Shown piece by piece: positions 1,746 through 57,483 of a stretch of DNA of 64,000 nt. The stretch lies in NCBI GenBank assembly GCA_045578045.1, contig JAZNJM010000064.1, forward strand, positions 9,695-73,694, given 5' to 3'. The translations under genes and the position numbers were made by a program. Source of the stretch: Eubacteriales bacterium (GTDB taxonomy: Bacteria > Bacillota > Clostridia > Oscillospirales > CAG-382). The notes beneath the pieces are model-generated. The model was not told where the DNA came from, ran no database searches, and saw only the letters and a program-made list of their open reading frames with translations. Each line of letters begins with the position of its first letter. Position 1 is the first letter of the stretch.

Positions 1746-1956
1746 AGTATATTATAACTCCCTTGAGATTACTATTTTGATTAATTATACTTCATTTATT
1801 TGATATTATCAAGTTATTTTTTTAAATAAACTAAAATAATAATAATTTTCTTATTAAAAAAACAGTAGAATATATAAATAAAAAAGATAAAAGGCAAAAT
1901 CAAAAAAATCAGACAATAAAAAATAAGTTATTTTTGTTAAAAAGCATAAATTTCTC

Positions 1957-1985
1957 TTGACATATCGCAAAGAATGTTGTATTAT
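1957..1985 (+). promoter_or_regulatory. Sigma-A-type promoter for the lipoprotein gene
   Basis: TTGACA (1957..1962), 17-nt spacer, TATTAT (1980..1985), about 75 nt upstream of the TTG start. Confidence 0.45.
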
Positions 1986-2058
1986 ATTATATGTGTTCAT
2001 ACGTATTATTGTTTGCGGCTTGAACTAAAATTCCTATTCGAAACGGGAGGACAAAATC

Positions 2059-4353
2059 TTGAAAAGATCCAGCTTAAAAACATTTTTAACTAAGGCGCTT
2101 GCTTCTTTGCTTATTGCTTTGACGCTTGTACCTTCCCTTGCATCTTGCAGCGACACAGAAGAAATTAATGATACTATTATTCCTGTTTATACTTTCTACG
2201 GAATAAAAGGCGAAGGAACAACTGACGAAGCTATCAGAGCAGTTGAGCTTTCTATCAACCGTATTCTTATGTCAAGATACACCTTTGCCGTTGACTTCCG
2301 TCTTTTCTTTGAAGACGAATATGAAGAAGCTCTCAACGCTGCAATTAAAGAAGTTGAAGAGTATGAAGAGCCCGAAGATGCTGCCGAAGAATCTTTTGCA
2401 TCTGGTGAACTTCCTCCATACACATACACAGAAGATAAAGTTATTGAATTACTCGAAAGCGGAAAAGATTTCGAATTTAAAGCTCCAAGAGTTGATATCG
2501 TTCTCTGCAAAGACTCAGAACAATATTTCGAACTTGCAAACTCCAAAAAGCTTGTCGCAATAGATACAACCCTTGAAAACGAAGGAAAAATTCTTTCCGA
2601 ATATATCCATCCAACACTTTTGTCTCTTGCAAAAATCGGAAGAAAAACTTTTGGTGTTCCCAACAACACAGCTATGGGTGAATATGAATATATCGTTTTT
2701 GACAAACAATATCTTGATGAACACAAGTATGATTACAAAACGATGAAATCTCTTGAAGACCTTGAAGATTATCTTTCACTTATCAAAGAGAAAAATGAAA
2801 ACGTTATCCCTCTTAAAAAAGCAGGTACTCCCGTTGGTTATGAATATCTTTTCGGAGATAAATCTCCATTCTACATAAGTCCTACAACTACAACATCAGG
2901 CGAAGCAACTGGAAGAATTTACGGTACGATGGATACAGATCTTAATGCATTTATCATTGAAGATTATGCTACTCTTATTGGTAAATACCGTTCTTTAGGT
3001 TATCTTGCAGATCCTTCTGATAATAATAAAGATTTTGCAGTAACCTTCGTTAAAGGAACACCGTCTGATATTGATGCTCTTGAAAAAGAAACGGGCAAAG
3101 AATACGAATATATTGTATATAAAACTCCCGTTGCAACAACAAAATCAATTGACACAGTATATTCTATTTCATCAACTGTTTCAACAACAGAAGTTACAAC
3201 TCTTATTGATATTATCGTTGCTCTTTTCACTGATGAACAAATAAAGAACTATTTCTATTATGGAATTCAAGGCGAACATTATATTCTCGATGACAACGAT
3301 CTTGTTGAACCAATCAAAGACGGTGATACAAATAAATTCGTTTACGTAATGGAAAACAAATACACAGGAAACGTTTATCTTGCAAAACAAAAGAAGGGTG
3401 AAAATGGCAAAATTTATGACGATATAAAACAAATTAATCTTGCAACATCTCTTTCTCTCACATCAGGCTTTGCATATATTCCAAAAACATACACAGTTGG
3501 AGATAAGACTTTAACAGAACCTAACTATGTTGAAATTATGACAAACGTTCTTGGAGATAGCATTTTGAAGCTCAATGACGGTTCATTTGGAATTGTTAAT
3601 TACGATGAATTCAAAGAATCCATTAAAGATAGCCTCAAAGAATCCGCAGAAAAATCGATTCAAACTTCATATTCTGATAAAATTCTCACAAATTATGTTG
3701 CAAAAAATTCTGCTCATCTTTCTTCAGAAGAATTTCTTTCTAACGTTGAAATTTTAGCCAAAGATGCAGTTAATGCCTCTCTTAGAAATAATGCAGTGAA
3801 TGCTCTCACAACAGAATATACAAAACAGCTCAAAACAGAGAATCCCGATATAACAGAGGAAGAAATCGCTGCTGCTCTTGATACGAAAATTACAGAGGAA
3901 GCAATAAAGAATTATATTGACACGAAATTCACGGCAGATTATATTGAAACTCTTATTAATGTCAACAAAAAAGACATTATAAGCCAAGAAAAAAAGAAGA
4001 TCAGTGAAGATTATAAACTAACTGATGAATATAAGAATTTAATAGCTTCATATATCGTTTCTGAAGAGTATAATGCTCTTGTTGAAGAATATATTATAGC
4101 ACAAGTTAATAAGAAATTTGTATCTCAAATAGAAGATCAAATTACAGCAGAAGCAGAGAAACTCCAATCTCAAGCTGTTGATGCTGTTGAAGAAGCAATA
4201 AAGAAATTTAATGAAACAGCTAAATCAACGTTTAAATGGTCTGACGCTGATGTAGAAAGTAATCTTGACGTTAATTCATATTCAGATTTCTTTGAAAAGA
4301 GACTTGTATCTCAGTATTATAGCGTTTATACCAATCCTGACGAAACAACATAA
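2059..4353 (+). CDS. Large lipoprotein, solute-binding-protein-like N-terminal part with a helical Glu/Lys-rich C-terminal third
   Basis: TTG start behind GGGAGG. Signal peptide with lipobox LASC. The central segment (GEYEYIVFDKQYLDEH...KTMKSLEDLEDYL) resembles family-1 ABC substrate-binding proteins. No adjacent permeases. Confidence 0.65.
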   Translation: MKRSSLKTFLTKALASLLIALTLVPSLASCSDTEEINDTIIPVYTFYGIKGEGTTDEAIRAVELSINRILMSRYTFAVDFRLFFEDEYEEALNAAIKEVEEYEEPEDAAEESFASGELPPYTYTEDKVIELLESGKDFEFKAPRVDIVLCKDSEQYFELANSKKLVAIDTTLENEGKILSEYIHPTLLSLAKIGRKTFGVPNNTAMGEYEYIVFDKQYLDEHKYDYKTMKSLEDLEDYLSLIKEKNENVIPLKKAGTPVGYEYLFGDKSPFYISPTTTTSGEATGRIYGTMDTDLNAFIIEDYATLIGKYRSLGYLADPSDNNKDFAVTFVKGTPSDIDALEKETGKEYEYIVYKTPVATTKSIDTVYSISSTVSTTEVTTLIDIIVALFTDEQIKNYFYYGIQGEHYILDDNDLVEPIKDGDTNKFVYVMENKYTGNVYLAKQKKGENGKIYDDIKQINLATSLSLTSGFAYIPKTYTVGDKTLTEPNYVEIMTNVLGDSILKLNDGSFGIVNYDEFKESIKDSLKESAEKSIQTSYSDKILTNYVAKNSAHLSSEEFLSNVEILAKDAVNASLRNNAVNALTTEYTKQLKTENPDITEEEIAAALDTKITEEAIKNYIDTKFTADYIETLINVNKKDIISQEKKKISEDYKLTDEYKNLIASYIVSEEYNALVEEYIIAQVNKKFVSQIEDQITAEAEKLQSQAVDAVEEAIKKFNETAKSTFKWSDADVESNLDVNSYSDFFEKRLVSQYYSVYTNPDETT

Positions 4354-14787: not shown

Positions 14788-14814
14788 ATGATAACCTTTT
14801 AGGATTATATATAA

Positions 14815-15384: not shown

Positions 15385-16149
15385 TCATTTTGACAATTCC
15401 TTGTCTTTTTCAACAAGAATTCTAACAGCCTCTATTGCTGTTTTAATTGCAGCCTCAGTATCGTGAACTTCTGGATTACTCAAGCCAGCATCTGCTCTTT
15501 CTTGATTCCAAACAACCTGAAAAACTGAACCTGCTCTGACCTTAAGTGTTGCCGCTACTGTATAAAGAGCCGCTGCCTCCATTTCACTGCAAAGAACTCC
15601 AAGCCTTTTCCACGCTTCCCATTTTTCAAGAAGTGCAGTAGCCGTAGCCATTCTTTTTGGGGAATGTTGACCATAAAATGAATCTTTACTTTGACATACA
15701 CCCATATGACATTTTTGTCCTAATTTTCGTGCGGCTTCTCTAAGTGCATATGCAACATCAAAGTCTCCTACCGCTGGAAATTCAACGGGAGCATATTCGT
15801 TGCTCGTTCCATCCTGACGAACAGCACCCGTTGCAACCACAATATCTCCGCCAATAACGTCAAGCTGTATTCCTCCGCAAGTTCCAACACGAATAAACGT
15901 ATCTGCTCCGCCCATAACAAGTTCTTCCATAGCTATTGCAGATGAAGGACCTCCTATACCGGTTGAACAAACTGAAACTTTCGCTCCGTTTATTGTTCCA
16001 GTATAAATCGTATATTCTCTGTTTGATGAAACAAACTCTGCGGTATCAAAAAAGGATGCTATCTTTTCGCATCTTCCTGGATCACCTGGCAAAAAACAAT
16101 ATTTACCAATACTTCCCTCGGGACATCTGAGATGATAAAATTCCTGCAT
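15385..16149 (-). CDS. udp: Uridine phosphorylase-like nucleoside phosphorylase
   Basis: [29 protein letters not shown] and SEMEAAALY align by eye to Udp. Start MQEFYHL sits behind GGAGG. Confidence 0.8.
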
Positions 16150-16315
16150 ATTTTCCTCCAAATTTATTATTCCATATGAAATCATATATTTAATTCTTTA
16201 CTGAAATATTTTAACACATTGAACAGAAAAAATCAATATGCTTTTTTGGTATTTTACATTTTTCCTATTGAAGATATCAAATTTATATGTTAAAATTACT
16301 TATAAAAATATATTT

Positions 16316-16948
16316 TTAGTTTCCAGAACAGTTTATTGTTTCGTTGCAACAATTACAGCCTTTGTTATAATATCCACCAACCCAAAAGGGAAGACCAACA
16401 GGATCAAACAAAGGTTGACTTTCACACAATACTGAATTATTGCCTCCGCAAGAACTACAGGAGCAATTATTGTTACAACTTGAACCGCAAGAGCAATTAT
16501 TATTTCCAAAAGAACAGCCATTGTTACCACACGTACCGCGAGAACAATTATTATTTACACGGGAACAACTACTGTTACCACACGCATCGCAAGAACAGCT
16601 ATTATTACCACACGCACCGCAAGAACAATTATTATTTCCGCAAGAGCAGCTACTTTTTTCGCAAGAACTACAAGAGCTTCCCACTCCAGACGAAAGACAA
16701 TAAATTTGTCCTGAACCACAAAATACTCTTGTTGGAACGTTGTCATACTCAACCTCTCTTCTTTCAGTGTTTCTAACATACTGAGACAAAGAAGAACAAG
16801 AACAAGAAGAAGAACAACAACTATTATTTGCTCTGTTTCTTCGAGAGTCCCCGAATAAGTTTTGAGAACTTAATTCAGAATTTCTATAGGATAACGAATT
16901 ATAATTTGATATATTCGTATTATTTGATTTATTACAATTACAACTCAT
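16316..16948 (-). CDS. Cys/Asn/Ser-rich repeat protein of unknown function
   Basis: 210 aa with 33 Cys by my count. No signal peptide or TM segment. AGAGG RBS. Central CGNNxCSC-type repeats. Confidence 0.7.
   Translation of the reverse strand: MSCNCNKSNNTNISNYNSLSYRNSELSSQNLFGDSRRNRANNSCCSSSCSCSSLSQYVRNTERREVEYDNVPTRVFCGSGQIYCLSSGVGSSCSSCEKSSCSCGNNNCSCGACGNNSCSCDACGNSSCSRVNNNCSRGTCGNNGCSFGNNNCSCGSSCNNNCSCSSCGGNNSVLCESQPLFDPVGLPFWVGGYYNKGCNCCNETINCSGN
16436..16675 (-). repeat. Imperfect 27-nt (9-aa) coding tandem repeats, CGNN(N/S)CSC(G/D)A type
   Basis: SCSCGNNNCSCGACGNNSCSCDACGNSSCSRVNNNCSRGTCGNNGCSFGNNNCSCGSSCNNNCSCSSCGGNN. The repeat keeps several frames open on both strands. Confidence 0.8.
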
Positions 16949-17028
16949 AATAATATACCTCTTTTTATATTTTAATACAGTATTCTTTTATAATATTTAA
17001 TGCATATATACGCAAAGGAGCTACAAAA

Positions 17029-18987
17029 ATGTTTTTACCTCTCACCAGAAAAGAATTTGATGACCTTGGAATTATACAGGCTGACTTTATTTTTGTTACG
17101 GGCGATGCATACGTTGATCACCCATCTTTTGGCACTGCTATACTTTCAAGAGTTCTTGAAGCAGAGGGATATTCTGTTGCTATTATTGCTCAACCCGACT
17201 ATAAAAGTGTTACAGACTTTAAAAGATTCGGAAAACCAAGACTTGGATTTTTAGTTAATAGTGGAAATATTGACTCTATGGTCGCTCATTACACAGCATC
17301 AGGAAAACCGAGAAGTGATGATTATTATTCTCCCGGCGGAGTTAAAGGAAAACGTCCTGACAGAGCTGTTATCGTTTATTGCAACAGAATTAGAGAGGCA
17401 TACGGAGATGTCCCTATTATAATTGGTGGAATTGAAGCCTCAACAAGAAGATTTGCACATTATGATTATTGGACAAACAAAGTCAGAAGAAGTATACTTA
17501 TTGACTCAACAGCAGATATACTTGCTTTTGGAATGGGAGAAAATATTTTAAAGAGAATTGCTTTTCTTCTCGACAAAGGTGTTCCCGTTAAAAAAATAAG
17601 AGATGTAAGAGGAACTTGCATAACAGCGGAAAAAGATTATATTCCAAAATTTGATTACGTTAAAACGTATCATTACGACACTCTTAAGACTGATAAGAAA
17701 GCATATGCAAACGCATTTAAAATTCAATATGAAAATCAAGACCATATAACAGGAAAAGCAATAGTAGAAGAATATGATAAATGTATTTTAGTCCAAAATC
17801 CTCCTATGCCTCCCCTATCACGAAAAGAGCTTGATGACGTTTATTCTCTTCCATTTATGAGAGATTACCATCCATCATATGAAGCAGAAGGCGGAGTTCC
17901 TGCAATTAAAGAAGTTAAATTTTCACTTGCTCATAATAGGGGTTGTTTTGGTGGTTGTAATTTTTGTGCAATAACGTTTAATCAAGGTAGAAGCGTTACT
18001 TCAAGAAGCATAGACTCGGTTGTTAAAGAAGCAGAAATTATTGCGTCTATGCCTGATTTCAAGGGCTATATACATGATGTTGGAGGTCCAACAGCAAATT
18101 TCAGAAACGCATCATGCGAGAAGCAAAAGAAAAATGGTATGTGTATAAAAAAACGCTGTCTTTTTCCTACGCCTTGCAAAAATCTTAATGCAGACCATAG
18201 CGAATACATTGAGCTTCTCAATAGAATAAAAGAAATTAAGGGAGTTAAAAAAGTTTTTGTTCGTTCCGGAGTAAGATATGATTTTGCTCTTTGCTCTTCT
18301 AATGACAAATTTTTAAAACAACTCATTTCTGAACACACAAGCGGACAGTTAAAGGTTGCGCCTGAACATTGTTCTAATAACGTTTTAAAATATATGGGAA
18401 AACCTTCTTTTGAAGTTTATAAAAAGTTTTCTGAAAAGTTTTATAAAATAACGAAAAATTACGGAAAAGAGCAATATCTCGTTCCTTATCTTATGTCTTC
18501 CCATCCGGGAAGTAGATTGGAAGATGCAATAGAACTTGCATTATATTTAAAGAAAAATAAAATAAATCCCGAACAAGTTCAGGATTTTTATCCAACCCCT
18601 GGAACAGCTTCAACTTGTATGTTTTATACCGAAATTGATCCATTCACGGGTGAAAACGTTTACGTTCCCAAAAGCTATGAAGAAAAAAAGATGCAACGTG
18701 CTCTTCTTCAATTTTCAAGAAAAGAAAACTATGAAACAGTTAAAAAAGCACTTATAAAAGCTGGACGAGAAGACCTTATTGGAAATGGAGAAGATTGTCT
18801 TATTTGGTTCAGACCATTATCAAAAACAAAAAAAGACGAAAAAAAATATAATAATGTTCAATTATCTAAATCAAAAGATAGAAGAAACGTTACACTTAAA
18901 GATAAAAAAACTAATAGTAAAAAAAGTAAATTAAATAAAACAAATAAAAATAATTCATCTCGAAAAAATTTTAAAAAACAAATATGA
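17029..18987 (+). CDS. ygiQ: YgiQ-family (UPF0313) radical SAM protein with Lys-rich C-terminal tail
   Basis: N-terminal [20 protein letters not shown] and radical-SAM cluster motif [17 protein letters not shown]. Confidence 0.9.
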
Positions 18988-18996
18988 AAAAAAAGC

Positions 18997-19181: not shown

Positions 19182-20213
19182 TTAACCAGTGATACCTGAT
19201 CTTTCAATACCTTGAACAAGTGATTTCTGACCGAAGAGATAAACAACAACGAGAGGAGCAAGAATAAGCAAACCACAAGTGTTATTAATAGCTGTTGTAT
19301 AAGCCATTTCTCCCGCATACTGAGTATCAAGACTTGAAGGCACTTTAACTATTCTCGACAAGAACACAAAGTCATCTTTTGATGGGAAAAATACATTTGT
19401 ATAAAAAGTATCTGACCACTGCCAAGAGAACGAGAACATAAAGATGGTTACCATCATAGGAACTGACATTGGAAGAATAATTCTTACGAAAGTCTTGAAT
19501 ACACCAGCTCCGTCAACGTATGCCGCTTCCTCCAATTCATCGGGAACGCCTTGGTAATACTGTCTCATAATGAAGATATAAAGACCGTTTTTAAAACCAA
19601 GTCCTGTCATTGAAAGAATAACAAAAGGCCATACCGAGTTTGTTAAATCGGCAATGCAAGGTGTTAACTGATTGGACCACTTAAATGCTTTTGCAAGTTT
19701 TCCATATATTCCCCAAATATCAAAATATCTGAAAAGATAAAACATTGATGAACGCAAAGTCTTATGAGGAATAACCATCGTCATTATAACACAAGCAAAA
19801 AGAATTGTACGACCTTTAAACTTGAATTTTGTAAAACCATAACCAATGATTGAACAAATGAGTGTCTGCATAACAGCAACCATAACTGAAAGCAAGGTTG
19901 TATTAAACAATGCTTTAAAATATTCATTTTCTTTGATTATAGCTTTATATGTATCAAGAGTAGGATTCTTTGGAATGAGCTTAACACCAACGTCAACAAA
20001 GTCATCTCTGCCCATAAATGAGCTGGAAATCTTTGATATATACGGTTGAAGTATAACGTATGATATCCCAACAAGAAGAAGAAAACGGAAAATAGACAAT
20101 ACAACTTTTCCAGCAAAATACGAATTGAAATATTTATATTTCATTCTTGTCCAGAAAGGTGTATTTTCATCAACTTTCTTTTGTTTGAAGTTAGGAGTAT
20201 TTAATTTATCCAT
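19182..20213 (-). CDS. ABC transporter permease, MalG-like (pair 2)
   Basis: Six TM segments and EAA loop EAAYVDGAGVFKTFVRIILP. Confidence 0.85.
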   Translation of the reverse strand: MDKLNTPNFKQKKVDENTPFWTRMKYKYFNSYFAGKVVLSIFRFLLLVGISYVILQPYISKISSSFMGRDDFVDVGVKLIPKNPTLDTYKAIIKENEYFKALFNTTLLSVMVAVMQTLICSIIGYGFTKFKFKGRTILFACVIMTMVIPHKTLRSSMFYLFRYFDIWGIYGKLAKAFKWSNQLTPCIADLTNSVWPFVILSMTGLGFKNGLYIFIMRQYYQGVPDELEEAAYVDGAGVFKTFVRIILPMSVPMMVTIFMFSFSWQWSDTFYTNVFFPSKDDFVFLSRIVKVPSSLDTQYAGEMAYTTAINNTCGLLILAPLVVVYLFGQKSLVQGIERSGITG

Positions 20214-20227
20214 TTTTCCTATCCTCC

Positions 20228-21217
20228 TTATGCATCTTTACGCTGATAGAATACGTATGCAGAAAGTATAGCCGAAACAATACCAAGGATCAACAATACT
20301 ATAACAAAGTAAATCCAAGACATTGCAGTTGATCTTACGGTAGCATGCTGAATACTACTATCATATACATCAGAAATATAACTCATAACAGTATTCGTTT
20401 CTGAAACAAATGCATCTATAATCGTATAAATTGAGTTTACGAAAATCATTGGGCTTATCATTGGGAAAGTAATTTTCCAGAAAGTTTCCCAAGAAGATGC
20501 ACCTTCAATAAAGCAAGATTCATAAATTGCAGGTGAAATAGATTGGAGACCTGCAAGGAAAACGAGCATTTGAACACCGGAACGGTTAATGATATCGTAC
20601 ACGTTGTTAACTATGCCTGTTACGTAGTTAACAAGGTCCTTACCTACCTGCATATTTGCAAAGAATCTCTGAACGTCAAGAGAAGAAATAATCTGGGTAC
20701 CAGCGGAGGTTGTTTGTCCTCCACCGGTATCAATTGTATTTCCACTTGAAAGTCCTGCTGCAAGACTGTTTTGAAGGTCAATTGCTTCAATAATACCAGT
20801 TGATACAATAACAGGAATAAAGAATATTGCTCTGAAAGCTGCACGTCCTGCCATTTTACCATTAAGAATAATAGCTATAAATAATGAAAAAATAACAATT
20901 GCAGGAACGTCAAAAAGCAATTCTTTAAGGCTTCCTATGAGTGTTGGAACGAAAGAAGTATCTTCAAAAAGAGCATACTCGTAGTTTTCAAATCCAGCAT
21001 TCTTAAGAACAATACCGCCCAACTTACCATTTACTGTTATTGTACTAAAGCTATACTGAATAGATTCAACTATCAAGGGTAGATAAATGAGGAAAAATCC
21101 AAGTATAAAAGGAAGGACAAAGAAATAACCCTTTTTTGCCTTACTCTTTTCAAGAGATTTCCCTTTTCTTTTCTTGGGAGCGGGTTTAGCAGCTGCTTTT
21201 GTATTAGTTTGATTCAT
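20228..21217 (-). CDS. ABC transporter permease, MalF-like (pair 2)
   Basis: Basic N-terminus, TM segments, EAA loop ESCFIEGASSWETFWKITFP. Confidence 0.85.
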   Translation of the reverse strand: MNQTNTKAAAKPAPKKRKGKSLEKSKAKKGYFFVLPFILGFFLIYLPLIVESIQYSFSTITVNGKLGGIVLKNAGFENYEYALFEDTSFVPTLIGSLKELLFDVPAIVIFSLFIAIILNGKMAGRAAFRAIFFIPVIVSTGIIEAIDLQNSLAAGLSSGNTIDTGGGQTTSAGTQIISSLDVQRFFANMQVGKDLVNYVTGIVNNVYDIINRSGVQMLVFLAGLQSISPAIYESCFIEGASSWETFWKITFPMISPMIFVNSIYTIIDAFVSETNTVMSYISDVYDSSIQHATVRSTAMSWIYFVIVLLILGIVSAILSAYVFYQRKDA

Positions 21218-21231
21218 TTTCTGCCTCCTCC

Positions 21232-24200
21232 TTATTCCACAATTTTTCCATTAGCGTCTACAAGAATGTAGCCTTGAGGTTTAATTTGATATTCTTTACC
21301 ATTATCAACTACAGTTTGCTCTTCGAGACTATGGTTGATATAGTAAATAAATTCATTTTCATTTGAATTTCCATTAATCTCTTTAGAATATCCAACCTTA
21401 ACAAGTTTATAATTATCGTCAAGGAATTCGTGAGAGTTCATATAGAGATTCTTAGTTGCTTTAAGAGCGCTATTCAATTTTCCATAAGTATTAACAATTG
21501 TCTGTTTAAGAATACTATATCTTACAGAATAATACTCAGAAAGAACATTATTAGCTTTAAGCTCTGAAGCGTTTTCATATGCTATGACGAAATATGGATT
21601 TGCTCCGTTTTCAATTGTTTTAAGAAGGAAAGTATCATAGTCTCCTGCAAGGTTAATAGGAGTACTTGTATAGCTCACGCTTCCATGAAGAACGAATGAA
21701 AGGAAAGGAATACTTGCTGAGGCATATATATGCATCGTATTTTCTATTGGAAGACCAAGAATATGATCAGCATATTCCCAAGCAAATGAGTTTCCTCCAG
21801 AAATCATAATTTCGTCATTCTGTTCTGCCATTTTTTCAAGAAGCTGTTTCATCAACATTTTAGAGTCTTCTCTATTAAGAGGATCTTCTTTGTTAAAGTC
21901 AGATGAAAGGTCGCTTCCTAAAGAAGCAACAGACATATTTTTGATTCCGTATTTTTGCAAATCTTTATAAAGAGAATCATAGAAAGACATCATTGAATTT
22001 GTAGAAATAATACCTTTATGAGAATAGCCATATGCTTGCATAAGAGCATTATATTCTTTTTTGAATGCATTTCTGTTATCGATAGTTTTTGAAAGGTGAT
22101 CCTTAGCGTTGAAATCATCAAATAATTCGTTTTCAATCATATATGTGAATTCGAATTCTGGGAAAAGACCGAATCCATTATCTTCACAATATTTAACGAG
22201 TTTTTTGAATTCTTCGTCTCCGCCAAGCTCTTTCAAAAGCTCAACCTTCGAAGGAACAATAGAGCTTACGCCACCGTTTGCCCAACCAGACATCTTTATA
22301 TTGATGTTATCAATCTTTGCTTCTCCTAAAAGCTCTTCGAAAATCTTTACAGTGTTTGCATATGTTGTCAATTTTTCCTTAATCTCATAAGGAATACCCA
22401 TAAATCTATCTGTAGAGTTAATTGCACCAATGGTTTCAAGATAAAGAGGAATATTTTCTTTTTTATCTTCGAGTGCCTTTAAAACGCCTTTTTCTGTTAG
22501 ATAGTTTCTATATTTCTTTGCCATTCCAACATATGAACATTCTTCATCTTCAAGAATAAAAATCTTAAGAGTGAAGTCGCCCGTATATTTTCTATCAGCC
22601 TCAACTGTCCATAGAGCATTTGCTCCAGCAGAAATACCGCCTGTTAAAGCATATGTATCTTTAGGACGAGGATTAAAAGAAGTATATGTCTGAACGTATG
22701 AATGGTATGAACCTTGTCTTTCTATTACAATATTTGCAAGAGATTCACCCTTTTCAATTATTGCAAAGAAACCACGCTTTCTATAAACAAATTCTTCTGT
22801 TACTGTATCGTCTGTAGTATCATCAGAAGGAACTTCTTCAACAGTTCCGTCTTCAGCAGGAGCATCGCCTGTCGGAGCATCTTCTGCTGGAGTATCCTCA
22901 GCTGGAGTATCCTCGGCGGGAGTATCCTCGGCGGGAGCATCATCGGGAACGACTGTGTTATTAGTTGTAAGCGTTACTTTTTCGTTTTCACAAATGCCAA
23001 AAACAGGAACTCTAACAACTTCTTTATTAGCTCCGCCAATGGTTGAAAACGCATAATCCTGACCAAATACAGTCTCACTTGTTGCTACACCCTTTGAATA
23101 TACGTCTTTAAAATCGTATATTGTTCCACAACCATCAGGAGAGAAAACATAACCGTCATTTGTTACGTTTCCGCATCCAGCAAAAGGAAGCATCAAAATA
23201 TTTGAAAGACTGTATTTTTCTGAATCAAAACGAACATTTGAAGAATTACATCTTACAGATACGCCATCCTTATTAAGAGTATATTCGAGAGCAAGTCTGA
23301 ATACGGGAGTTTCAACGTCTGAAGAAACGAATCCAGTTTCAGCGTGGTCTGCATCAAGCTCTTCAAAGCTATAGAATACTCTTAAATCAGATTCAATATT
23401 TTTACGTTCTTGTTCTTTTATGTTTATATCACAAACTGCAAGACCGCCTGTTACAGCAACAGGATATTCTTTTCTCATATCTGCATTAAGATTACTAAAC
23501 GTAGCTAATGAACATTCATTCTTAATTTCTTCAACTCTTGAATCTTTAGTTACATCTGCTACATACAACTTATAAAATGCAGCGAAACGTTTTGCGGCAA
23601 AATCTCCATACTGTTCTTTGAATCTCATATAGATATCAAACCAACGATCAAGAGTTACAACCTCAGGAACAAGGTATTTTACAGACAAACGGCCAATAAC
23701 ATATTCAACACGAAGACCGCCTTTAATATCTTTTGTTGTTATCTGACCATACTGAACAGAATCCTTATAGCTATAAAAGATCTTTTCAGCTGTACCTTCT
23801 GTAAACTTAATAATCAACTGTGAAAAAAGGTTTTGCTTAATTGTATTACTCGTTGCAGAACCGTCAATACCTGTACTTTGGCTTACGTTATATGGGTTTG
23901 AAGTCCAATATCCAACGTAATCATAAACACCATTATCCTGGAGCTTATATCCGTTTTCATCTTGTTTCTCACCTTTTTCAGCCTTTTTAAGCTTAAGCAC
24001 GATAATTTCACCAGTGTATGAATCGCAATATAATGCATTACCTTCTCTCACAAGAACCAGCTTCATACTACCAACGGTTTCATTACCGAGAATTCTTGTT
24101 TCAATTGAGTTAAATCCAGCAATCATATAAGCGGGATCGCGAACTGCCCATATTTCATCTGCTGTCATTTCTCCATCATCATCTTTTGCAAAAGCAGAAA

Positions 24201-24267
24201 ACGTTGTTGGAAGGAAAAGTGTCAGCGCAAGAAGCATTACTAAAACTTTTTTCAAAATGTTTTTCAT
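21232..24267 (-). CDS. Secreted 1011-aa protein, DUF5696-like (function unknown)
   Basis: Signal peptide MKNILKKVLVMLLALTLFLPTTFSAFA. Acidic Pro-rich linker. The C-terminal half resembles the DUF5696 proteins I recall from similar Clostridia loci (unverified). Confidence 0.6.
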   Translation of the reverse strand: MKNILKKVLVMLLALTLFLPTTFSAFAKDDDGEMTADEIWAVRDPAYMIAGFNSIETRILGNETVGSMKLVLVREGNALYCDSYTGEIIVLKLKKAEKGEKQDENGYKLQDNGVYDYVGYWTSNPYNVSQSTGIDGSATSNTIKQNLFSQLIIKFTEGTAEKIFYSYKDSVQYGQITTKDIKGGLRVEYVIGRLSVKYLVPEVVTLDRWFDIYMRFKEQYGDFAAKRFAAFYKLYVADVTKDSRVEEIKNECSLATFSNLNADMRKEYPVAVTGGLAVCDINIKEQERKNIESDLRVFYSFEELDADHAETGFVSSDVETPVFRLALEYTLNKDGVSVRCNSSNVRFDSEKYSLSNILMLPFAGCGNVTNDGYVFSPDGCGTIYDFKDVYSKGVATSETVFGQDYAFSTIGGANKEVVRVPVFGICENEKVTLTTNNTVVPDDAPAEDTPAEDTPAEDTPAEDAPTGDAPAEDGTVEEVPSDDTTDDTVTEEFVYRKRGFFAIIEKGESLANIVIERQGSYHSYVQTYTSFNPRPKDTYALTGGISAGANALWTVEADRKYTGDFTLKIFILEDEECSYVGMAKKYRNYLTEKGVLKALEDKKENIPLYLETIGAINSTDRFMGIPYEIKEKLTTYANTVKIFEELLGEAKIDNINIKMSGWANGGVSSIVPSKVELLKELGGDEEFKKLVKYCEDNGFGLFPEFEFTYMIENELFDDFNAKDHLSKTIDNRNAFKKEYNALMQAYGYSHKGIISTNSMMSFYDSLYKDLQKYGIKNMSVASLGSDLSSDFNKEDPLNREDSKMLMKQLLEKMAEQNDEIMISGGNSFAWEYADHILGLPIENTMHIYASASIPFLSFVLHGSVSYTSTPINLAGDYDTFLLKTIENGANPYFVIAYENASELKANNVLSEYYSVRYSILKQTIVNTYGKLNSALKATKNLYMNSHEFLDDNYKLVKVGYSKEINGNSNENEFIYYINHSLEEQTVVDNGKEYQIKPQGYILVDANGKIVE
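22849..22944 (-). repeat. 15-nt coding tandem repeat, (PAEDT)n acidic linker
   Basis: DDAPAEDTPAEDTPAEDTPAEDAPTGDAPAED read directly from the reverse strand. Confidence 0.85.
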
Positions 24268-24285
24268 TTAATCTTTTCCTCCCCT

Positions 24286-26481
24286 CTACATTCGGTATGA
24301 AAGTTCAACGTAGATACCATATCCTAAATAGAATACCTTTTGAATCAACGTTGTAAAGAGTATACCAATAAACATAATCAATGCCATACCAACGATTGTT
24401 CCAACGGATGTTATTATATTCTTTCCAATTGAATAATCGTGAATAACCATCATTCCAAAGAATATTAATGCACCTGTCCAGATAAGTCCGAGACTTGAAA
24501 CAAAATTCATTATGGTATATTCGTCAAGAGTTAAAACGTTAGAAAGTATCGTAGAAATAACAACACAAATAAATGCAGGCATCAATGCATAACATGTCGT
24601 TATATAAACGTCTTTTAAGCTTCCTTCTCCATCGAACAAGGTTGTTAAACACCAGTTAGCAACAACCCAAAGAACAACAGGAAGTATAACTGAAAAGATT
24701 TGAATCGTAAAACTGATTCCTACGAAATGAGGATTATATAAATATCCCTGTCCAACTGCTTTATAAAGATATCCTAAAATTGTAAGAATGAAAATAAACG
24801 TTGCGCCCTTAACAGAACCTCTCTTTTCATGTTTAAGATCCCAGAATCCATCGAATGGATGATACATAACGTGATAAACATAAAGGAATTCTTCCATTAA
24901 GGTACGTTTTTCCTTCATTTTTTGTCCACGAAGGTTTACTTTCTTTCTATATTTACTAAATAAACTAAATATAACGCAAACAACAACTATAAATACAGGA
25001 ACAATCCAAACACGATCTTCAATCCATTCTTTGCGATATTTTGTATATGCAAGAGAATAGTTTTCCGTATCATAAGCGTATTTATAAAGTTTCATTGCTT
25101 CTTCATATTCAGCATCCTGATAATAGCTTTGAGCAATACCAACGTATGCACTGTCAAAGTTATTGTTACTACGGAGAATCTCAGTATAATAATCAACTAC
25201 CTTATCATATTCACGGTCGAGCTTACTTTGAAGAGCTTCTACGATAAGATCACCGTATTCAGTGCGTTTGTATACTGTTATTGTTGAGTTTGTAAAGTCT
25301 AAAAGGAGAATTTTTGTTCCCTGATAGGCTATTGCTGTTAAACCATTAACATTTATCTGACCAAGCTGAGTACCAACATCACCAAAAATATGGAGAAGAT
25401 TTCCCTGCTCGTCATACGTATATACCTTTGAACGTTTTTTATCAATGATACTCCAAGTACCTGATGGTCCAAGGGCAACGTCTACTATCTGAGATGGACC
25501 CGAAATAGAGTTTTCAACGTGTGATGCTCCATTAATTGTTATTTCACCCGAAGGAGGATAGAAACCGCCTCTGACAAGAACGTCTGTTCCGCTTGGGTTA
25601 AGCTTTTTAATAGGAGCATAATTAGAATCTCTTGAACGAGAAGAAATTGCGTTTTGTTGTTGACCTTCATCAATGGAGTCTGTTGTAACATAAATGAATC
25701 CATCGCTGTCAATTACACAGTTATTATATTCCGTTGGAACAAACTTTTCAGATTTTGCACGTTGTTCGTCCGTTTGGAACATTCTCCAAATGTATTGAAA
25801 AACATTATAAGTAACTTTTTGAGCCCCAACGAAACCATTGAAAGAGCCATCTCTGTTCATTGAGATAACACCATAGTTTGTAGTTGAAGAAACAACGTAT
25901 ATACGACCGGCTTTGTCAACAGAAACAGCGATAGGAGTATAAACGCTTTTATCTGGAATAACTTCACTTGCAGGTTCTGAAACTATACATTGAAAATTAC
26001 CCATTTTATCAAAAATAACAATTCTTGATTTTCCTGTATCTGCAACGTAAATTTCACTTTCTGTTACGAAAACACCCTGAGGTTTGCTTAAAGCATCAGG
26101 AACACCATTTTCATTAATAAAAGAGCTTAACATTAATCTGAGATTATAATTCTCATCAAGAGCTACAATTCTGTTGTTAGTTGTATCGGCAAGATAGACG
26201 TGATTAAGATTATCAACGAAAACGTCTCCAATACTACCGAGTGTACCAAAAGAATCAACAGTATATTTGCCGTTATGAACGTTAGCTTCTGTTATTGACT
26301 GAGAAATTGTCGTGCTATTAATATAACTAAGAGGAACGTATGCGTGTGGGCTTTGAGTCATAGCTCCGAATACGTCATATGTATATGACGTATAAGGAAC
26401 AAGAGCTTCAGCGGCAACGCTTCCAATTGTAACTGTAAGCAAGACAGTGAGGAGTAGTACTTTTAATATTTTTTTCTTCAT
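24286..26481 (-). CDS. Signal peptide / NHL-repeat propeller / TPR-like / TM / Yip1-domain fusion protein
   Basis: NHL-like repeats (YLADTTNNRIVALD, YVADTGKSRIVIFD). TPR-like AQSYYQDAEYEEAMKLYKYAY. C-terminal five-TM region starting HPFDGFWDLK, typical of bacterial Yip1 proteins. Confidence 0.65.
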   Translation of the reverse strand: MKKKILKVLLLTVLLTVTIGSVAAEALVPYTSYTYDVFGAMTQSPHAYVPLSYINSTTISQSITEANVHNGKYTVDSFGTLGSIGDVFVDNLNHVYLADTTNNRIVALDENYNLRLMLSSFINENGVPDALSKPQGVFVTESEIYVADTGKSRIVIFDKMGNFQCIVSEPASEVIPDKSVYTPIAVSVDKAGRIYVVSSTTNYGVISMNRDGSFNGFVGAQKVTYNVFQYIWRMFQTDEQRAKSEKFVPTEYNNCVIDSDGFIYVTTDSIDEGQQQNAISSRSRDSNYAPIKKLNPSGTDVLVRGGFYPPSGEITINGASHVENSISGPSQIVDVALGPSGTWSIIDKKRSKVYTYDEQGNLLHIFGDVGTQLGQINVNGLTAIAYQGTKILLLDFTNSTITVYKRTEYGDLIVEALQSKLDREYDKVVDYYTEILRSNNNFDSAYVGIAQSYYQDAEYEEAMKLYKYAYDTENYSLAYTKYRKEWIEDRVWIVPVFIVVVCVIFSLFSKYRKKVNLRGQKMKEKRTLMEEFLYVYHVMYHPFDGFWDLKHEKRGSVKGATFIFILTILGYLYKAVGQGYLYNPHFVGISFTIQIFSVILPVVLWVVANWCLTTLFDGEGSLKDVYITTCYALMPAFICVVISTILSNVLTLDEYTIMNFVSSLGLIWTGALIFFGMMVIHDYSIGKNIITSVGTIVGMALIMFIGILFTTLIQKVFYLGYGIYVELSYRM

Positions 26482-26496
26482 ATTATTCTTTCCTCC

Positions 26497-27405
26497 TTAG
26501 TCTTTCATACCTGAAGTTGACATTGTTTCGATAACGTTACTCTGAGAAATAACAAAAACAATTATTGGAACCGCCATCATAACAACAGCAGATGCAGAAC
26601 CCGCACCAGCACGGGAAATACCAGCGGATACAACCTGACCGATTGCATAGTTAAACGTTTTGAGCTGTTCACTTTGAATATAGATTGTTGCGCCAGAATT
26701 CCAAAGGTCTTTAAAGCAGAAGATTATAAGGGTTACCCAAGCAGGTTTAACCATTGGCATTGCTATCTTCCAGAAAATCAAGTTTTCGGAAGCACCTTCA
26801 AGACGAGCAGATTCAAGAACTGCATCTGTTACGGATGTTTCCATAAACTGTTTCATAAGGTAAAGACCGTATGTTGTACAGAAAGCGGGAACAATTACAG
26901 CAAAATATGTATCAACCCAATGTAACCAGTTCATTATAATAAAGTTTGTTATACCTGTAACTGTTGAGTTAAACATAAGGGAGTAAACAATAAGTTTAAA
27001 CATCCATTTTCTTCCGGGAAACTTAATTTTTGCCAATGCATATGCTGCATATGAAGAGCAAAGAACGTTACCTATTGTACCAACAAGTGAAATGAAAACA
27101 GTATTAAAAATGTATCTTGAAAAAGGTACCCAAGAGGTTCCCATCAAGCGGAAAAGGTCTTTAAAGTTTTTAAACGTTGGGTTTTTAACAAAAAATTTAG
27201 GAGGATACATCCACAACTCATCCAAGGGTTTGAGAGAGGATGAAATCGCATATACCATAGGAAGAACCATAACCGCACCGAAGATAGCAAGAATAAGATT
27301 TATTCCAAAATCTCCGCCTGATGAACGGTTAAGACGCTTTGGTTTATCACCTTTTTCTTTTTTATTAAAAAGTTTGATACCAAACTTCTTATTAGAACTC
27401 GTCAT
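26497..27405 (-). CDS. ABC transporter permease, MalG-like (pair 1)
   Basis: EAA loop ESARLEGASENLIFWKIAMP. Starts 1 nt after the upstream permease. Confidence 0.85.
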   Translation of the reverse strand: MTSSNKKFGIKLFNKKEKGDKPKRLNRSSGGDFGINLILAIFGAVMVLPMVYAISSSLKPLDELWMYPPKFFVKNPTFKNFKDLFRLMGTSWVPFSRYIFNTVFISLVGTIGNVLCSSYAAYALAKIKFPGRKWMFKLIVYSLMFNSTVTGITNFIIMNWLHWVDTYFAVIVPAFCTTYGLYLMKQFMETSVTDAVLESARLEGASENLIFWKIAMPMVKPAWVTLIIFCFKDLWNSGATIYIQSEQLKTFNYAIGQVVSAGISRAGAGSASAVVMMAVPIIVFVISQSNVIETMSTSGMKD

Positions 27406-27406
27406 C

Positions 27407-28408
27407 TTATTCTCCCACCTTTCTTAGTAATTTATTTACCAAAAGGTTAGCACCAAACATCATTAAGAACAACAATGTCGCTATTGCAGATGCATAACCA
27501 AGTTCAAAACGTTGTCCGCCGTAGTCGTCCAAATGGTGAGTAATTGTATGAGCACAATAGTTTGGGCTTGGGAATCCAACAAGAGCTGTTATAATTCCAC
27601 CGAATCCAAATGAGCCAGTAATTGAGAGAATAGCACCAAGCATCATCTGAGGACGCATTGTGGGCAACGTGATATACCAAAGCTCTTGCCAACGGTTTTT
27701 AATTCCGTCAACTGCACCAGCTTCGTAGAGAGATTTATCAACAACCTGAAAACCTGCAATGAACGTAAGGAAGGATGTGCCCAAGCTGGTCCAGAGCGCG
27801 ATAGCAATAATAAGTGGGAATATGTATTCTTCATCCTGAAACCAAAGAATTGGATTTGTTATCAGGTTAAGTCTCATAAGCCAAGAGTTAACAAGTCCGT
27901 ATTGGTCAGATGCGAAGAAATATGTCCAGATAAGATATATATTACCTGATATTGAAGGTGCATAGAAAAGCAACGTTACAACAGCACGAATCTTTGGTCT
28001 GAGCTCGTTAATAAACCAAGCGAAGAAAAGTGAAAGTAAGTAAGATGCCGGCCCCGTTACACCTGCAAAAACAAAAGTGTTTTTAATCGCAGTAAGGAAT
28101 ATATCATCTTCAAGGAACAATCTGATATAGTTCTGTGCATAAACTATTTCAGGCCATTCAAGCATATTAAACGTTGTGAAACTAAGGAAAAATGAGAAAA
28201 CAACAGGTATTACAGTAAAGAGGAAAAACAAGAAGAAGAAGGGCAAAATCATTACATATGCAACCCAATTGTTTTTAATTTCGCTTAAAGTCCAAGCGAA
28301 CTTAGATATGTCTTTTCTTGCTACAACTTTTTCAGTATTTGATTCTGTCTCTTTTGTCGTTTTGGGTTTTACTTCATTTTTCGTTTTTGTCTTTTGTTCT
28401 TTAGACAT
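27407..28408 (-). CDS. ABC transporter permease, MalF-like (pair 1)
   Basis: Lys/Thr-rich N-terminal tail, TM segments, EAA loop EAGAVDGIKNRWQELWYITLP. Confidence 0.85.
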   Translation of the reverse strand: MSKEQKTKTKNEVKPKTTKETESNTEKVVARKDISKFAWTLSEIKNNWVAYVMILPFFFLFFLFTVIPVVFSFFLSFTTFNMLEWPEIVYAQNYIRLFLEDDIFLTAIKNTFVFAGVTGPASYLLSLFFAWFINELRPKIRAVVTLLFYAPSISGNIYLIWTYFFASDQYGLVNSWLMRLNLITNPILWFQDEEYIFPLIIAIALWTSLGTSFLTFIAGFQVVDKSLYEAGAVDGIKNRWQELWYITLPTMRPQMMLGAILSITGSFGFGGIITALVGFPSPNYCAHTITHHLDDYGGQRFELGYASAIATLLFLMMFGANLLVNKLLRKVGE

Positions 28409-28467
28409 TTGATACCCTCCCTGTTATTTTTAAGATTAGGGAAGTGCTATATGTTTTTTTGTTTATA

Positions 28468-31400
28468 CTAATCAAGGAATGTTGCATCTTCAAAATCCCC
28501 CGATGTACAAAGTCCAAATTCTTTACGTTTTCTGTCAAACTCGTTATTAATATCTTCAACATAATTTCTAAGAGTATCAACAGGATCTGCCGAATCGTTA
28601 TAAACGGAAAGGAATGCAAATCCGCAGTAACGAGCAATAATGTATCCACCTGGATAGTCAGGCATAAGTGTTACATCCTGGAACTGAGCAAACAAGTTGT
28701 CATATTCAGATTTTGACCATGGCATATTGTAGAGAGCTTCAAGGTTTGCTGTTCCGTATTTTGCGGAAGGACCAAGAAGAGCTTCAAGTTCATTACCATA
28801 ATCACTTTGTATTTGAGCTGATGTCCACCACTGGATAAACGTCCAAGCACTAAATGCGTTTTCATCAGTACAACCTTTAAGAATAACAACGCCCGATACA
28901 CCTGCAAGAGCAGTATTGGTTATGGTTCCATCTTGATTGAGATAACCTGGCATTGGTGTAAATTCCCAAAGTCCGTTGATTTCAGGAGCGAATACTATGA
29001 GTTGGTTGTAAGCACTGTAATCGCACCAAGCAAGAGGCATTTCACCTGTACGGAAACGGTTTGCAAAATCGTATGATACAGGGAATCCATACATTGTTGA
29101 AAGCTGACAAGCTTCTTTAAATGAAGCAAGTGAAATATCACAATCAAGGTTAATAGACATACCGTCTGTTTTGGGGAATGTATAAGTATACGTTCCGTCT
29201 CCGTTGTCTTTTACATACTTATATTCAAAATCAGGACGATTATTTTCATTATACGTTACTTGATAGGTGTTTCTCGTTTCTTCAAGTTTATCACCAAACT
29301 CATCCATATAATGTTCATAATATGTTTTGCCATCGTCAGCAAGTTTTCCGCCATAGTTATAAAGTGTCTCACCCTGCTGATACATCCATGTGAATGAAAC
29401 GCCTGTTCCCGTTGGGAATCCTATATCCATTTTATTTGCATCAAGGGTGTAGATAATATCATAAAGCTCATCCCAAGTTTTTGGAACTTCAACGCCAAGC
29501 TCTGCAAAAATATCTTTTCTATAGAAAAGCATAGGGAAGCTCATTCCTTCTGGAATTGCGTACGTTACACCGTAAAGCGTAAGAGGAATTGTTGCGGGTT
29601 CAGCAAAACGCTTTTTAACTTCTTCAAAGGAATCAACATCGTCAAAGAATTTGCTATATACGGGATCGTCTTTGTATTTCTGCATTCCCGCTTCTGTAAA
29701 GTTAAATCCGATTTTCTGAAGCTCAGGGTCGTCAGAATCTGCATCAGGATTATTTACAGCTTTAATTGCATAACGAATAGAATAGTTAATAACTGTTCCA
29801 GAGTCAAGACCGAAAGTAACGTCTGGGCCTGTTCCAGCAAGAATAGAAGGAAGAAGCGAACCGCCTACAACAATCTTCATTTCAACGTTTATTCCAGGAT
29901 ACTTTTTAGCAAAGTCATTATCTATAAGATCACGAATAATCTGAGCAGTATCTCTTGAAGCAGAGGTCCAAACAAGAATGGATTTGCTTTCGTCAACCGG
30001 CTCGTCGTTGTCTGTGAAACTTCCAATTGTTGTATAGTCAGAGAAGAATGACATTATAAATCTCTTAACTTCGCCCCAGAGAGTTTCAAAGAATCCGCCT
30101 TCAGCATCAGGAAGTTTTGCATCAGTTGATTGGAAGAGAATATAGTCAACATCAAGAGGCTGTGCCTGAGTTGACGTTACCCAAGTACCAAGAGAACCTA
30201 TCTGTGCTTTAAGGTCAGCAAGCATACCTGCAACCTTTGTTGGTCTTGTTCCCATTTGTTCAAGAATATATGCTGTTTTATCAAGAACAACAGAGTGGTC
30301 TCCCTTATAACCGATAATTTTTTCAAGCTCATCGGAAATGTTTGTAAGGAGTTCGGCTTGTGCCTTAAAACCTTTAAGTACTTCTGGCATTGAGGTTTCG
30401 AATCCATAATCACGGAATTCATCAGGTTCAGAACCTGTTACCATCAATATTTTTCTATAATATCCGTTTATTATATTAAGAGAGTTTTCAACGTTACTGA
30501 GAATATATGCCATATCACCAAGGACAGCTTCCATACGTATGCTATGAACACCCTTTTCAAGATAGAACTTAAAGGTTGTTTCTCCATCTGTTAAACCCTT
30601 GGCTATAAATTCTTGTGAGTAATTAAACTGAAGATTTTTAGCTTCTTCAAATGGAACAACTCCGTCAATGGAAATGCTTCTTGAAACATACATACCAGCG
30701 TATATATCCTGTTTTGCTCTAAGAACAATATTATAAAATCCAGTTTCAGGAATATCAACTCTCCACTCTATCCATTGACCGAGATACTGCCATTTATCTC
30801 CACCGATTTCATTGAATCTGATTCTGGAAGCATCCCAAGGCTCAGTTATAACGGAAGATGTGTTAGAAATCTGATATATAGTTTTACTTGATGTGTATGT
30901 TGAATGTTCAGCCTGGATCTTAAAAGAAGTTCCATCTTTAACATTATTTTCCTTGCCTTCATTTGCATTGAGATACTCTTCGTAAGTTGGAGCACTTTCA
31001 GCAGTTTTTAAAGTTATTGATTTAACAACTAATGGCTCACGCAAGGTTTTAAGAGTTATCTGATGTTCACCTTTTGACAAATAAAATTTGAGAGGAGTAG
31101 AACTATATCCCGTGGAATCGTAAAAATAGTCTGTCATCCACTCACCAATAAGTTGCTTTTGAGGTTTCTTTTCATTTCCCAACGTATCCTGCGGGAAAAC
31201 ACGATCAGGAGTAATTCCAGCCGTCTTATCAAAGAAGTCCTTAGAGTCAGAATATGTATGATTACCTTTCGTATCTGTGTATACATCAATCCATTTTCTT
31301 GTAAATTCAATAGAACGTGCTTCTTTATATGGAACTACAGAATCGATAAGAATAGCTCTTTCGATGTCTGAGTTTTTTGAAGAAGAAACAAGAGTTACAG

Positions 31401-31944: not shown

Positions 31945-32464
31945 TCGCTTTTCCTCCTGGTAGCGTTTAAATGGGAATTGACCTGTATAAAAGTGTGGAT
32001 GAAGAATAAATTGAAATTTGTACTCTTTGCCACATTTTTTAACGATAGTATAATACCACAACGATAACTTTTTGTCAAGAGTGCATATAAATAAGAGAGT
32101 TTTAAGAATAATAATTTCGTATTTTGATAAACGTTATTTTTCAAATCGATTTTTAAACAAAAAAAGCATTGGGCATCTTAGGTAAATTTTAATAAATATA
32201 AATTTATTTACCAAATTTCAATTAATATATAAATTAACTTTATCATACCGTTTTAGCCTTTTAAAACGCATTTTAAAGACTTTATGCCAACTTTTTATAA
32301 TCATAAATTCTTAATATGTAAATTTTATATTCTTTTATTGTTTTATCAAAATTAATACATCAACGAAAAATCAATTGTTAAATGATAATTTTTCAAGGAT
32401 GTTTTTAAAGAACAAACCGATTATTTTGTATATATTGCACAATTTTGTGTTTCAAAATTCTACA

Positions 32465-50104: not shown

Positions 50105-50146
50105 TCCCTCAGACCAGAAATAAAACACTGTTCTGAGGGATTTTTT
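50105..50146. terminator. Bidirectional terminator
   Basis: Stem tccctcaga / tctgaggga followed by T6. Overlaps the stop of the convergent gene. Confidence 0.7.
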
Positions 50147-57449: not shown

Positions 57450-57483
57450 AATAATAGTATTATAAGTTTAAAAGGAGATTCAT

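Follow-up and report, generated by a model that had tools for sequence, protein, structure and literature searches.

The window analyzed here, a 64-kb stretch (64,000 nucleotides, nt) of contig JAZNJM010000064.1 from an Eubacteriales bacterium, contains a gene on the minus strand (16316..16948) that encodes a Cys-rich protein of 210 amino acids (aa). The open reading frame (ORF) is intact from its ATG start codon to the stop codon (210 codons). A ribosome-binding site (RBS; AAGAGG, 16958..16963, minus strand) precedes it, with the GAGG of the Shine–Dalgarno sequence (16958..16961) located 9 nt 5′ of the ATG, and the intact frame and good RBS described in the initial annotation of this stretch were both recovered. 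The RBS is kept as AGAGG or GGGGG in all related loci. The gene is divergent from ygiQ (17029..18987, plus strand), which encodes a 652-aa radical S-adenosylmethionine (SAM) protein of the YgiQ family (TIGR03904, E = 9e-255; Pfam domains Radical_SAM_N, Radical_SAM, and DUF3362), and the starts of the two genes are exactly 80 nt apart, the distance that had been given previously. The downstream neighbor, udp (15385..16185, minus strand), encodes uridine phosphorylase (TIGR01718, E = 8e-91).

Cys, Ser, and Asn dominate the composition of the protein, as had been stated before; we counted 33 Cys (15.7%), 44 Ser, 38 Asn, and 21 Gly residues, no His, and 13 Phe, Trp, or Tyr residues. The motif counts were 8 CxC, 5 CxxC, 2 CC, and 13 NxxC. 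Neither a signal peptide nor a membrane segment was detected (the highest Kyte–Doolittle mean over 19 residues was 0.87), in agreement with the initial annotation. In the family alignment, the N-terminus carries the motif MSCNCN (consensus M-[SG]-C-x-C-N; 16931..16948, minus strand), in which M1 is invariant and C3 nearly so, and which is absent only in the variant of locus L011 described below. A mid-protein motif, D-N-V-P-T-R-V-F (consensus d-x-V-P-T-R-V-[FY], then Cys; 16721..16744, minus strand), was present in all full-length members and not in the 96-aa member P0003. The C-terminal module CESQPLFDPVGLPFWVGGYYNKGCNCCNETINC (16328..16426, minus strand) has the signature P-V-G-[LI]-P-F-W-[VY]-x-G-Y-Y-N-x-G-C-x-C-C, and its residues P183, G185, P187, F188, W189, G192, Y194, N195, C198, and C201 were invariant in 10 sequences. 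The distinct C-terminal tail mentioned previously, LCESQPLFDPVGLPFWVGGYYNKGCNCCNETINC, was also found, and stretches of the protein include NTERREVEYDNVPTR and VFCGSGQIYCLSSGVGSSCSSCEK.

Between the mid-protein motif and the C-terminal module lies a Cys-rich repeat core (C93–C167; 16448..16672, minus strand), which is made of imperfect 10-aa units such as CGNNNCSCGA and has 20 Cys in 75 aa (27% Cys); the DNA repeat periods given by Tandem Repeats Finder were 30, 51, 81, and 21 nt. The initial annotation had described CGNNxCSC-type repeats of 9 aa, and its unit type was right, while the best units are 10 aa long. AlphaFold2, run on a 7-sequence family alignment, gave a predicted local distance difference test score (pLDDT) of 34 and no secondary structure, and the protein is thus predicted to be fully disordered.

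Comparison with its relatives indicates that the ORF is a real, conserved gene under purifying selection. It had been considered that the ORF might lack conservation; a dozen relatives were found. Against the closest ortholog, P0001, from a genome whose DNA is 86% identical to the window across the locus, the ratio of nonsynonymous to synonymous substitution rates (dN/dS) was 0.13 overall (0.125 in the N-terminal part, 0.098 in the repeats, and 0.159 in the C-terminal part), and that of ygiQ in the same pair was 0.063. A chance open frame in the low-complexity tandem repeat between ygiQ and udp, rather than a functional gene, would fit three observations: further reading frames are also open across the repeat DNA, gene callers took another frame in two metagenome-assembled genomes (MAGs), and the gene apparently has no call in the window's own genome, as the protein search gave no self-match. 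Such an origin can nevertheless be given almost no credence, in view of the dN/dS of 0.13, the in-frame character of all indels between orthologs, and the Cys frame alone being the longest ORF in 7/7 complete loci compared. The start codon, the RBS, and the non-repetitive N- and C-terminal parts were also conserved, even between loci whose repeats differ entirely. An Rfam scan of positions 14000–19500 returned nothing relevant, and the region is therefore not a known RNA element.

The calls in another frame were located in two NCBI MAGs. At L007, the called ORF (3370..3906, minus strand; equal to 9370..9906 of L015) yields a 178-aa product (VETTPVVADATH...), and the true gene lies at 3218..3937 on the minus strand. 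At L014, the call (1877..2335, minus strand) yields a 152-aa product, and the true gene lies at 5659..6192 of L006. These calls and the missing self-match show that low-complexity genes with Cys repeats, such as this one, are under-represented in protein databases. The Cys-rich gene thus illustrates how fast-evolving, low-complexity, clade-restricted genes escape annotation.

Homologs were searched by a word-indexed search of 5.8 billion proteins, a HMMER scan of 1.84 billion representative proteins, and a family profile search. The word-indexed search returned one homolog, and the HMMER scan returned four matches, all of them orthologs from a single clade. The profile search also gave four matches, which were clade proteins only, two of them new to the set. 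Loci L005, L006, L007, L010, L011, and L012 were added by DNA-level pattern scans, in which the C-terminal module was the pattern used for retrieval, and by inspection of ygiQ loci. Sequence searches of Pfam, NCBIfam, and PDB with the single protein and with the family profile gave no match, so that the family, which the initial annotation did not recognize, corresponds to no family in these databases. When 10 members were searched against Pfam at E values up to 10, nothing was retrieved except one chance match to DUF5505 (0.045). A tblastn search against plasmids and phages was also without match and thus gave no sign of a mobile-element origin.

The clade consists of MAGs of uncultured gut Eubacteriales/Oscillospiraceae; besides the window assembly and the MAG with L005, the gene is carried by GCA_045593705.1, GCA_054277495.1, GCA_964509125.1, and GCA_045593425.1. 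Every family member sits in a genome with a YgiQ 83–100% identical to that of the window, and the next YgiQ homologs beyond the clade show 74% identity or less; the Cys-rich ORF was absent from the three outgroup loci (YgiQ 73–74% identical). These searches indicate that the family is confined to one narrow, genus-level clade, with no detectable relatives elsewhere, and that, having neither a homolog outside this clade nor a domain match, it is a new sequence family. The kind of protein is familiar, as lineage-specific, low-complexity, Cys-rich proteins are known from spore surfaces and among metallothioneins.

Within the clade, the orthologs were 32–84% identical to the window protein, in contrast to 83–95% for the adjacent YgiQ, which shows that the Cys-rich gene is fast-evolving. 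The repeat units found across the orthologs include CGNNNCSCGS, CGSCGNNIGS, CGCGTRSSN, SSCGCN, and CGCGSNTCGNNS, and the copy number of the repeats also varies. In P0003, the repeat core is almost absent and both termini are kept. Cys made up 12–19% of all members, while Asn ranged from 8 to 21%, apparently swapped for Ser, Thr, or Gly in the Asn-poorer members, and the number of NxxC motifs ranged from 1 to 21. What the members have in common is therefore not NxxC but Cys residues set close together among small polar ones.

A divergent 240-aa variant was noted at L011 (2723..3445, minus strand), which starts with TTG and contains 19% Cys; its promoter and its junction with ygiQ are those of the other loci. 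MSCNCN and PVGLPFWYGGYYN are both missing from this variant, which keeps a TRVY remnant near its C-terminus and a C-terminal GCNCC and ends in ...TRVYSFSRGQVRSINNACPCYGCNCCTSCLG. At this locus, a gene for a dockerin/ricin-lectin protein follows the variant in place of udp.

The usual gene order in the clade was ygiQ, the divergent Cys-rich gene, and then udp, rplU, prp, rpmA, and obg. The Cys-rich gene was divergent to ygiQ in every clade locus reaching ygiQ, L011 with its changed downstream neighbor included, and the gap between the two start codons was 56–83 nt. The initial annotation had raised the possibility that this adjacency might be unique to one genome; it is not, and it extends no further than the clade, being absent from the three outgroup loci. 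As the adjacency is confined to one genus-level lineage, it is explained by common descent; what it reflects is the youth of the lineage, and it does not demonstrate a functional link. In the outgroup loci L008/L009 (6006..8141, plus strand; YgiQ 73% identical), ygiQ is followed directly by spoIVB (Peptidase_S55) and spo0A and preceded by a rubrerythrin gene, and the surroundings of ygiQ therefore differ outside the clade.

Several minor features were noted around the gene. The promoter of udp is an extended -10 sigma-A promoter (TTGATT-17-TGtTAAAAT; window 16208..16236, minus strand) conserved in L001–L004. Just upstream of it lies a 29-nt block, ATATCTTCAAnAGGAAAAATGTAAAATAC, with a minimal ATG-TAA (about 16249..16277, minus strand), conserved in L001–L003. 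Downstream of the Cys-rich gene, terminator prediction gave no intrinsic terminator. At L012 (4674..5078) and L014 (7763..8161), a gene for a FUR-family regulator lies approximately 2–3 kb past the 3′ end of ygiQ, after an SBP_bac_5 gene. No other gene for a metal regulator was seen close to a family member; this one is absent from the window and is probably unrelated to the Cys-rich gene.

The intergenic region between the Cys-rich gene and ygiQ was identical at approximately 75/80 positions in the closest pair, compared with a synonymous divergence (dS) of approximately 0.5–0.7, and is thus better conserved than synonymous sites. It contains a candidate sigma-K-type promoter, GTAGC-17 nt-CATTAAATA (16994..17024, minus strand), recognized as a pattern conserved across loci. 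The pattern, GT[AG][AG]C-17-CAT[TA]nnnTA, was found in 9/9 loci with a complete 5′ end, where it ends 21–48 nt before the start codon, and it occurs once in the 64-kb window compared with 0.10 occurrences expected. In form, the element resembles the experimentally mapped sigma-K promoters of Clostridioides difficile, which have GTAACA, GAAACA, or TTAGCA, a spacer of 16–18 nt, and [CA]ATAnnnTA (PMC3789822, Table S7), and both cdeC (CD1067) and cdeM (CD1581), which encode exosporium proteins of this species, are sigma-K-dependent (PMC3789822). A position weight matrix was built from 19 mapped C. difficile sigma-K promoters, and its scores were compared with those of random 100-nt segments; in leave-one-out scoring, true sigma-K sites obtained 0.9–18.1 bits (median 13.8). 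The conserved site scored 10.4–11.1 bits in L003, L006, L011, and L012 (about 1% of random segments scored as high) and 7.3 bits in L004 and L007 (6%). The promoter evidence for sigma-K control is suggestive only.

Other promoter and operator candidates fitted less well. No sigma-A promoter was conserved across the nine loci; in the best candidates for one, the -10 box reads TATAAA and lacks the final T, and none was seen in L006 or L011. The consensus sequences of sigma-E, sigma-F, sigma-G, and extracytoplasmic function (ECF)-type promoters, compared by eye, misfit in spacing or in the -10 box, and L004 and L006 have intergenic regions (56–62 nt) too short to hold them. An alternative -10 box, AATAnnnTA, located 5 nt further downstream, fits the sigma-K/E -10 consensus well in 7/9 loci; it was not adopted because it lies 22 nt from the GTAAC element and neither AC nor ATA is suitably spaced from it. 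TGCATTWAATA was rejected as a repeated operator (8 matches in the window versus 9.35 expected), as was AC-17-CATWWAATA as a regulon pattern (one unrelated match). No palindromic operator common to the intergenic regions was found.

We tentatively propose that the Cys-rich protein may be a cross-linkable spore coat or exosporium protein, made in the mother cell and working like CdeM and CdeC of C. difficile. It would be a lineage-specific, unstructured, Cys-rich structural protein that is produced in the cytoplasm, probably in the mother cell at a late stage of sporulation, and then becomes part of a surface layer, for example the spore coat or the exosporium. Thiols for intermolecular disulfides, formed once the layer meets oxidants, could come from the CxC at the N-terminus, the Cys repeats of the core, and GCxCC at the C-terminus. 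The aromatic module PVGLPFW(Y/V)GGYYN and the VPTRVY motif might serve docking or self-assembly, and the repeat core might act as a cross-linkable spacer of variable length. Sporulation-specific expression, spore-surface location, and disulfide cross-linking are what we infer for the protein.

The composition and layout of the window protein parallel those of CdeM, with N/G/S/C repeats and a C-terminal GCNCCNETINC. CdeM, which occurs in a single species, is a 161-aa protein with 8.7% Cys and without a conserved domain; its repeats are NGNNGGNNNNC and, at the C-terminus, CNCCNCCRK. CdeC contains repeats of the NPC and CCRQGKGK types and has CNECC at its C-terminus (PMC6101409). CdeC is also reported to form ordered aggregates that are DTT-sensitive (PMC7677010). 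CdeM and CdeC thus resemble the window protein in being Cys-rich, in their short Asn/Gly-rich repeats and C-terminal Cys cluster, in lacking a signal peptide or recognized domain, in their very narrow taxonomic range, and in their size (161 and 405 aa, respectively, versus 210 aa), and their genes depend on sigma-K, while a sigma-K-like element lies upstream of the window gene. However, the Cys content of the window protein is approximately twofold higher (16% versus about 9%), and its M[SG]CxCN, VPTRVY, and PVGLPFWYGGYYN motifs have no described counterpart in CdeM or CdeC. Homology to the two proteins was undetected in the HMMER scan of 1.84 billion representatives, which matched only the clade orthologs. 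CsxA of Clostridium sporogenes is likewise a Cys-rich exosporium lattice protein. Bacillus subtilis CotY and CotZ and Bacillus anthracis ExsY are Cys-rich, self-assembling proteins of a disulfide-locked outermost spore layer (cited in PMC6101409). Together, CotY/CotZ, ExsY, and CsxA are unrelated, lineage-specific, Cys-rich, self-assembling proteins that follow the principle proposed here; however, they are folded, contain approximately 5–10% Cys, and have no low-complexity repeat core, while the window protein is predicted to be disordered, and a Pfam search revealed no homology to them.

Further properties of the gene and its lineage are consistent with a spore-surface protein. The lack of a signal peptide and membrane segment is as expected for coat proteins, which are assembled from the mother-cell cytoplasm. 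The retention of both termini in P0003 without most of the core suggests that the indispensable part consists of docking or assembly modules rather than a metal-binding core. Fast divergence with complete turnover of the repeat units is typical of spore-surface proteins, and the presence of spoIVB and spo0A beside the outgroup ygiQ indicates that the wider lineage includes spore formers. If the proposal is correct, the protein would add one more case of Cys-rich proteins that evolved independently to build the outer spore layer, in this case in uncultured gut Oscillospiraceae, and could serve as a marker or antigen for spores of the clade.

A number of observations weigh against this proposal. 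The initial annotation had pointed to sigma-K- or sigma-E-type promoter motifs as a check; the sigma-K-like pattern is present in all nine loci and weak in the window itself, where, as in L001, a different site outscored the conserved one and reached 5.8 bits (12% of random segments scored as high). In L002, a different site again scored highest, at 2.4 bits (36%). At position 4 of the -10 box, all hand-aligned C. difficile sites have A, and eight of the loci (all but L003) have T. The -35 element overlaps, on the other strand, the spacer between the Shine–Dalgarno sequence and the start codon of ygiQ, and the conservation of the element may therefore have another cause, namely this overlap with ygiQ initiation or the close relatedness of the loci. 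The pattern was, moreover, chosen after the sequences had been viewed. It is also mildly unfavorable that no sporulation gene was found in approximately 85 kb of clade sequence, which comprised the 64-kb window (approximately 50 larger ORFs plus those in the gaps) and a further 20 kb from L014 and L015. The Oscillospiraceae hold both sporulating and non-sporulating members (PMC11536998). No sequence homology to known coat or exosporium proteins was detected in Pfam, NCBIfam, or the 1.84 billion representatives.

Among the three alternatives offered initially, a spore coat or exosporium protein is the most supported, by its composition and the sigma-K-like element, a metallothionein-like protein is retained, and a radical SAM substrate is disfavored. 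A metallothionein-like cytoplasmic binder or buffer of Cu(I), Zn(II), or Cd(II), in which the CxC/CxxC core would wrap thiolate clusters and fold when metal-bound, is the main rival and somewhat less likely. All members contain 12–19% Cys, with 27% in the core of the window protein, and the CxC, CxxC, and CC motifs are dense there. Strings such as CSCGS, CGCGS, and CNCCN resemble those of fungal and plant metallothioneins (Neurospora CuMT and plant MT1/MT2), modular repeat expansion occurs in ciliate and fungal metallothioneins, and the cytoplasmic window protein has modular repeats as well as CSCGS/CGCGS-type strings. The low pLDDT and absence of secondary structure are as expected for apo-metallothionein. 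The likeness thus extends to Cys density, to CxC/CxxC/CC motifs spaced by Gly, Ser, and Asn, to a disordered apo form, and to modular repeats. However, metallothioneins are classically defined by a low molecular weight and few or no aromatic residues, and the window protein is much larger (210 aa), with 13 aromatic residues and an invariant PFW..GYY module; this hydrophobic, aromatic module is better conserved than the Cys core, most of which is gone from P0003 while the termini are kept. It also differs from the bacterial metallothioneins SmtA and BmtA in having no His. No member matched a Pfam metallothionein at E values up to 10, and none was matched in NCBIfam or PDB; no metal-efflux, chaperone, or metal-sensor gene is adjacent, and the intergenic regions share no palindromic operator. 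To our knowledge, no metallothionein is known in Firmicutes, which also speaks against such a function; should the protein bind metal, we would know of no earlier metallothionein-like protein from Firmicutes. Another thiol-rich, disordered, cytoplasmic role in a strict anaerobe, such as storage of Cys or sulfur, buffering of redox state or sulfide, or scaffolding of Fe-S or polysulfide chemistry, is improbable. Genes for pyruvate:ferredoxin oxidoreductase and rubrerythrin in the window identify the organism as a strict anaerobe, the protein is cytoplasmic and very thiol-rich, and its predicted disorder fits a reservoir or buffer. Such a role would leave unexplained why the VPTRVY motif and the aromatic module at the C-terminus are strictly conserved, however, and neither ferredoxin-type CxxCxxCxxxC motifs in the protein nor sulfur-metabolism neighbors were found; a need for it in only one genus-level clade is also hard to see.

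It is highly unlikely that the Cys-rich protein is a substrate or partner of YgiQ, carrying, for example, Cys-directed thioether cross-links, of the kind known from ranthipeptides (NxxC, CxxxD, or SCIFF types), or thiol modifications on the whole protein. This possibility arises from the divergent adjacency in every clade locus reaching ygiQ (including L011) and from the 13 NxxC motifs of the window protein, and the literature found assigns YgiQ no function. NxxcB forms Cys-Asn beta-thioethers (PMC9389541); the idea of an NxxC thioether was dropped, as neither NxxC nor the Asn content is conserved while Cys is constant. YgiQ is widespread, with more than 8000 homologs at E values below 1e-100 in one search, and the closest outgroups hold a YgiQ without a Cys-rich neighbor. 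The window YgiQ scored 846 bits against TIGR03904 (cutoff 462), covering residues 2–561 of 652, and no SPASM/twitch or peptide-recognition domain was detected in it using Pfam. Precursors of peptides that are synthesized ribosomally and modified post-translationally (RiPPs), such as NxxcA, PapA/freyrasin, and SCIFF/ranthipeptides, resemble the window protein in their repeated Cys motifs beside a radical SAM gene, and NxxC is frequent in the window protein. They differ from it in being 40–60 aa long with a leader, while the window protein has 210 aa and no leader/core layout, and in being co-transcribed with a SPASM maturase and usually a protease or exporter, while the genes here are divergent, not co-transcribed, and lack a nearby protease or exporter, and the widespread YgiQ lacks SPASM. 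The protein also gave no match to SCIFF or other RiPP-precursor models of NCBIfam. If a partnership with YgiQ were nonetheless true, it would offer a first clue to what the widespread, uncharacterized YgiQ/UPF0313 family does. The remaining probability falls to functions outside these readings.

Elsewhere in the window, a large carbohydrate-uptake cluster (19182..32061, minus strand) contains two pairs of ATP-binding cassette (ABC) permeases. It also includes a 1011-aa DUF5696 protein and a 731-aa NHL-repeat/Yip1 protein. A solute-binding-domain protein of the cluster is unusually long, at 1197 aa, and SBP_bac_8 was found in it only at residues 807–1089. The ORFs at 2059..4353 (plus strand; 764 aa), 46171..47226 (plus strand; 351 aa), 50146..51363 (minus strand; 405 aa), and 52734..54320 (minus strand; 528 aa) had no match in the domain library scanned (Pfam and/or NCBIfam). 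At 57162..58542 (plus strand), a gene for a small ArsR-type regulator is followed by one for a membrane protein of the SdpI/YfhL family that contains a bacterial PH domain, and this SdpR/SdpI-like immunity pair precedes an ABC-2 transporter.

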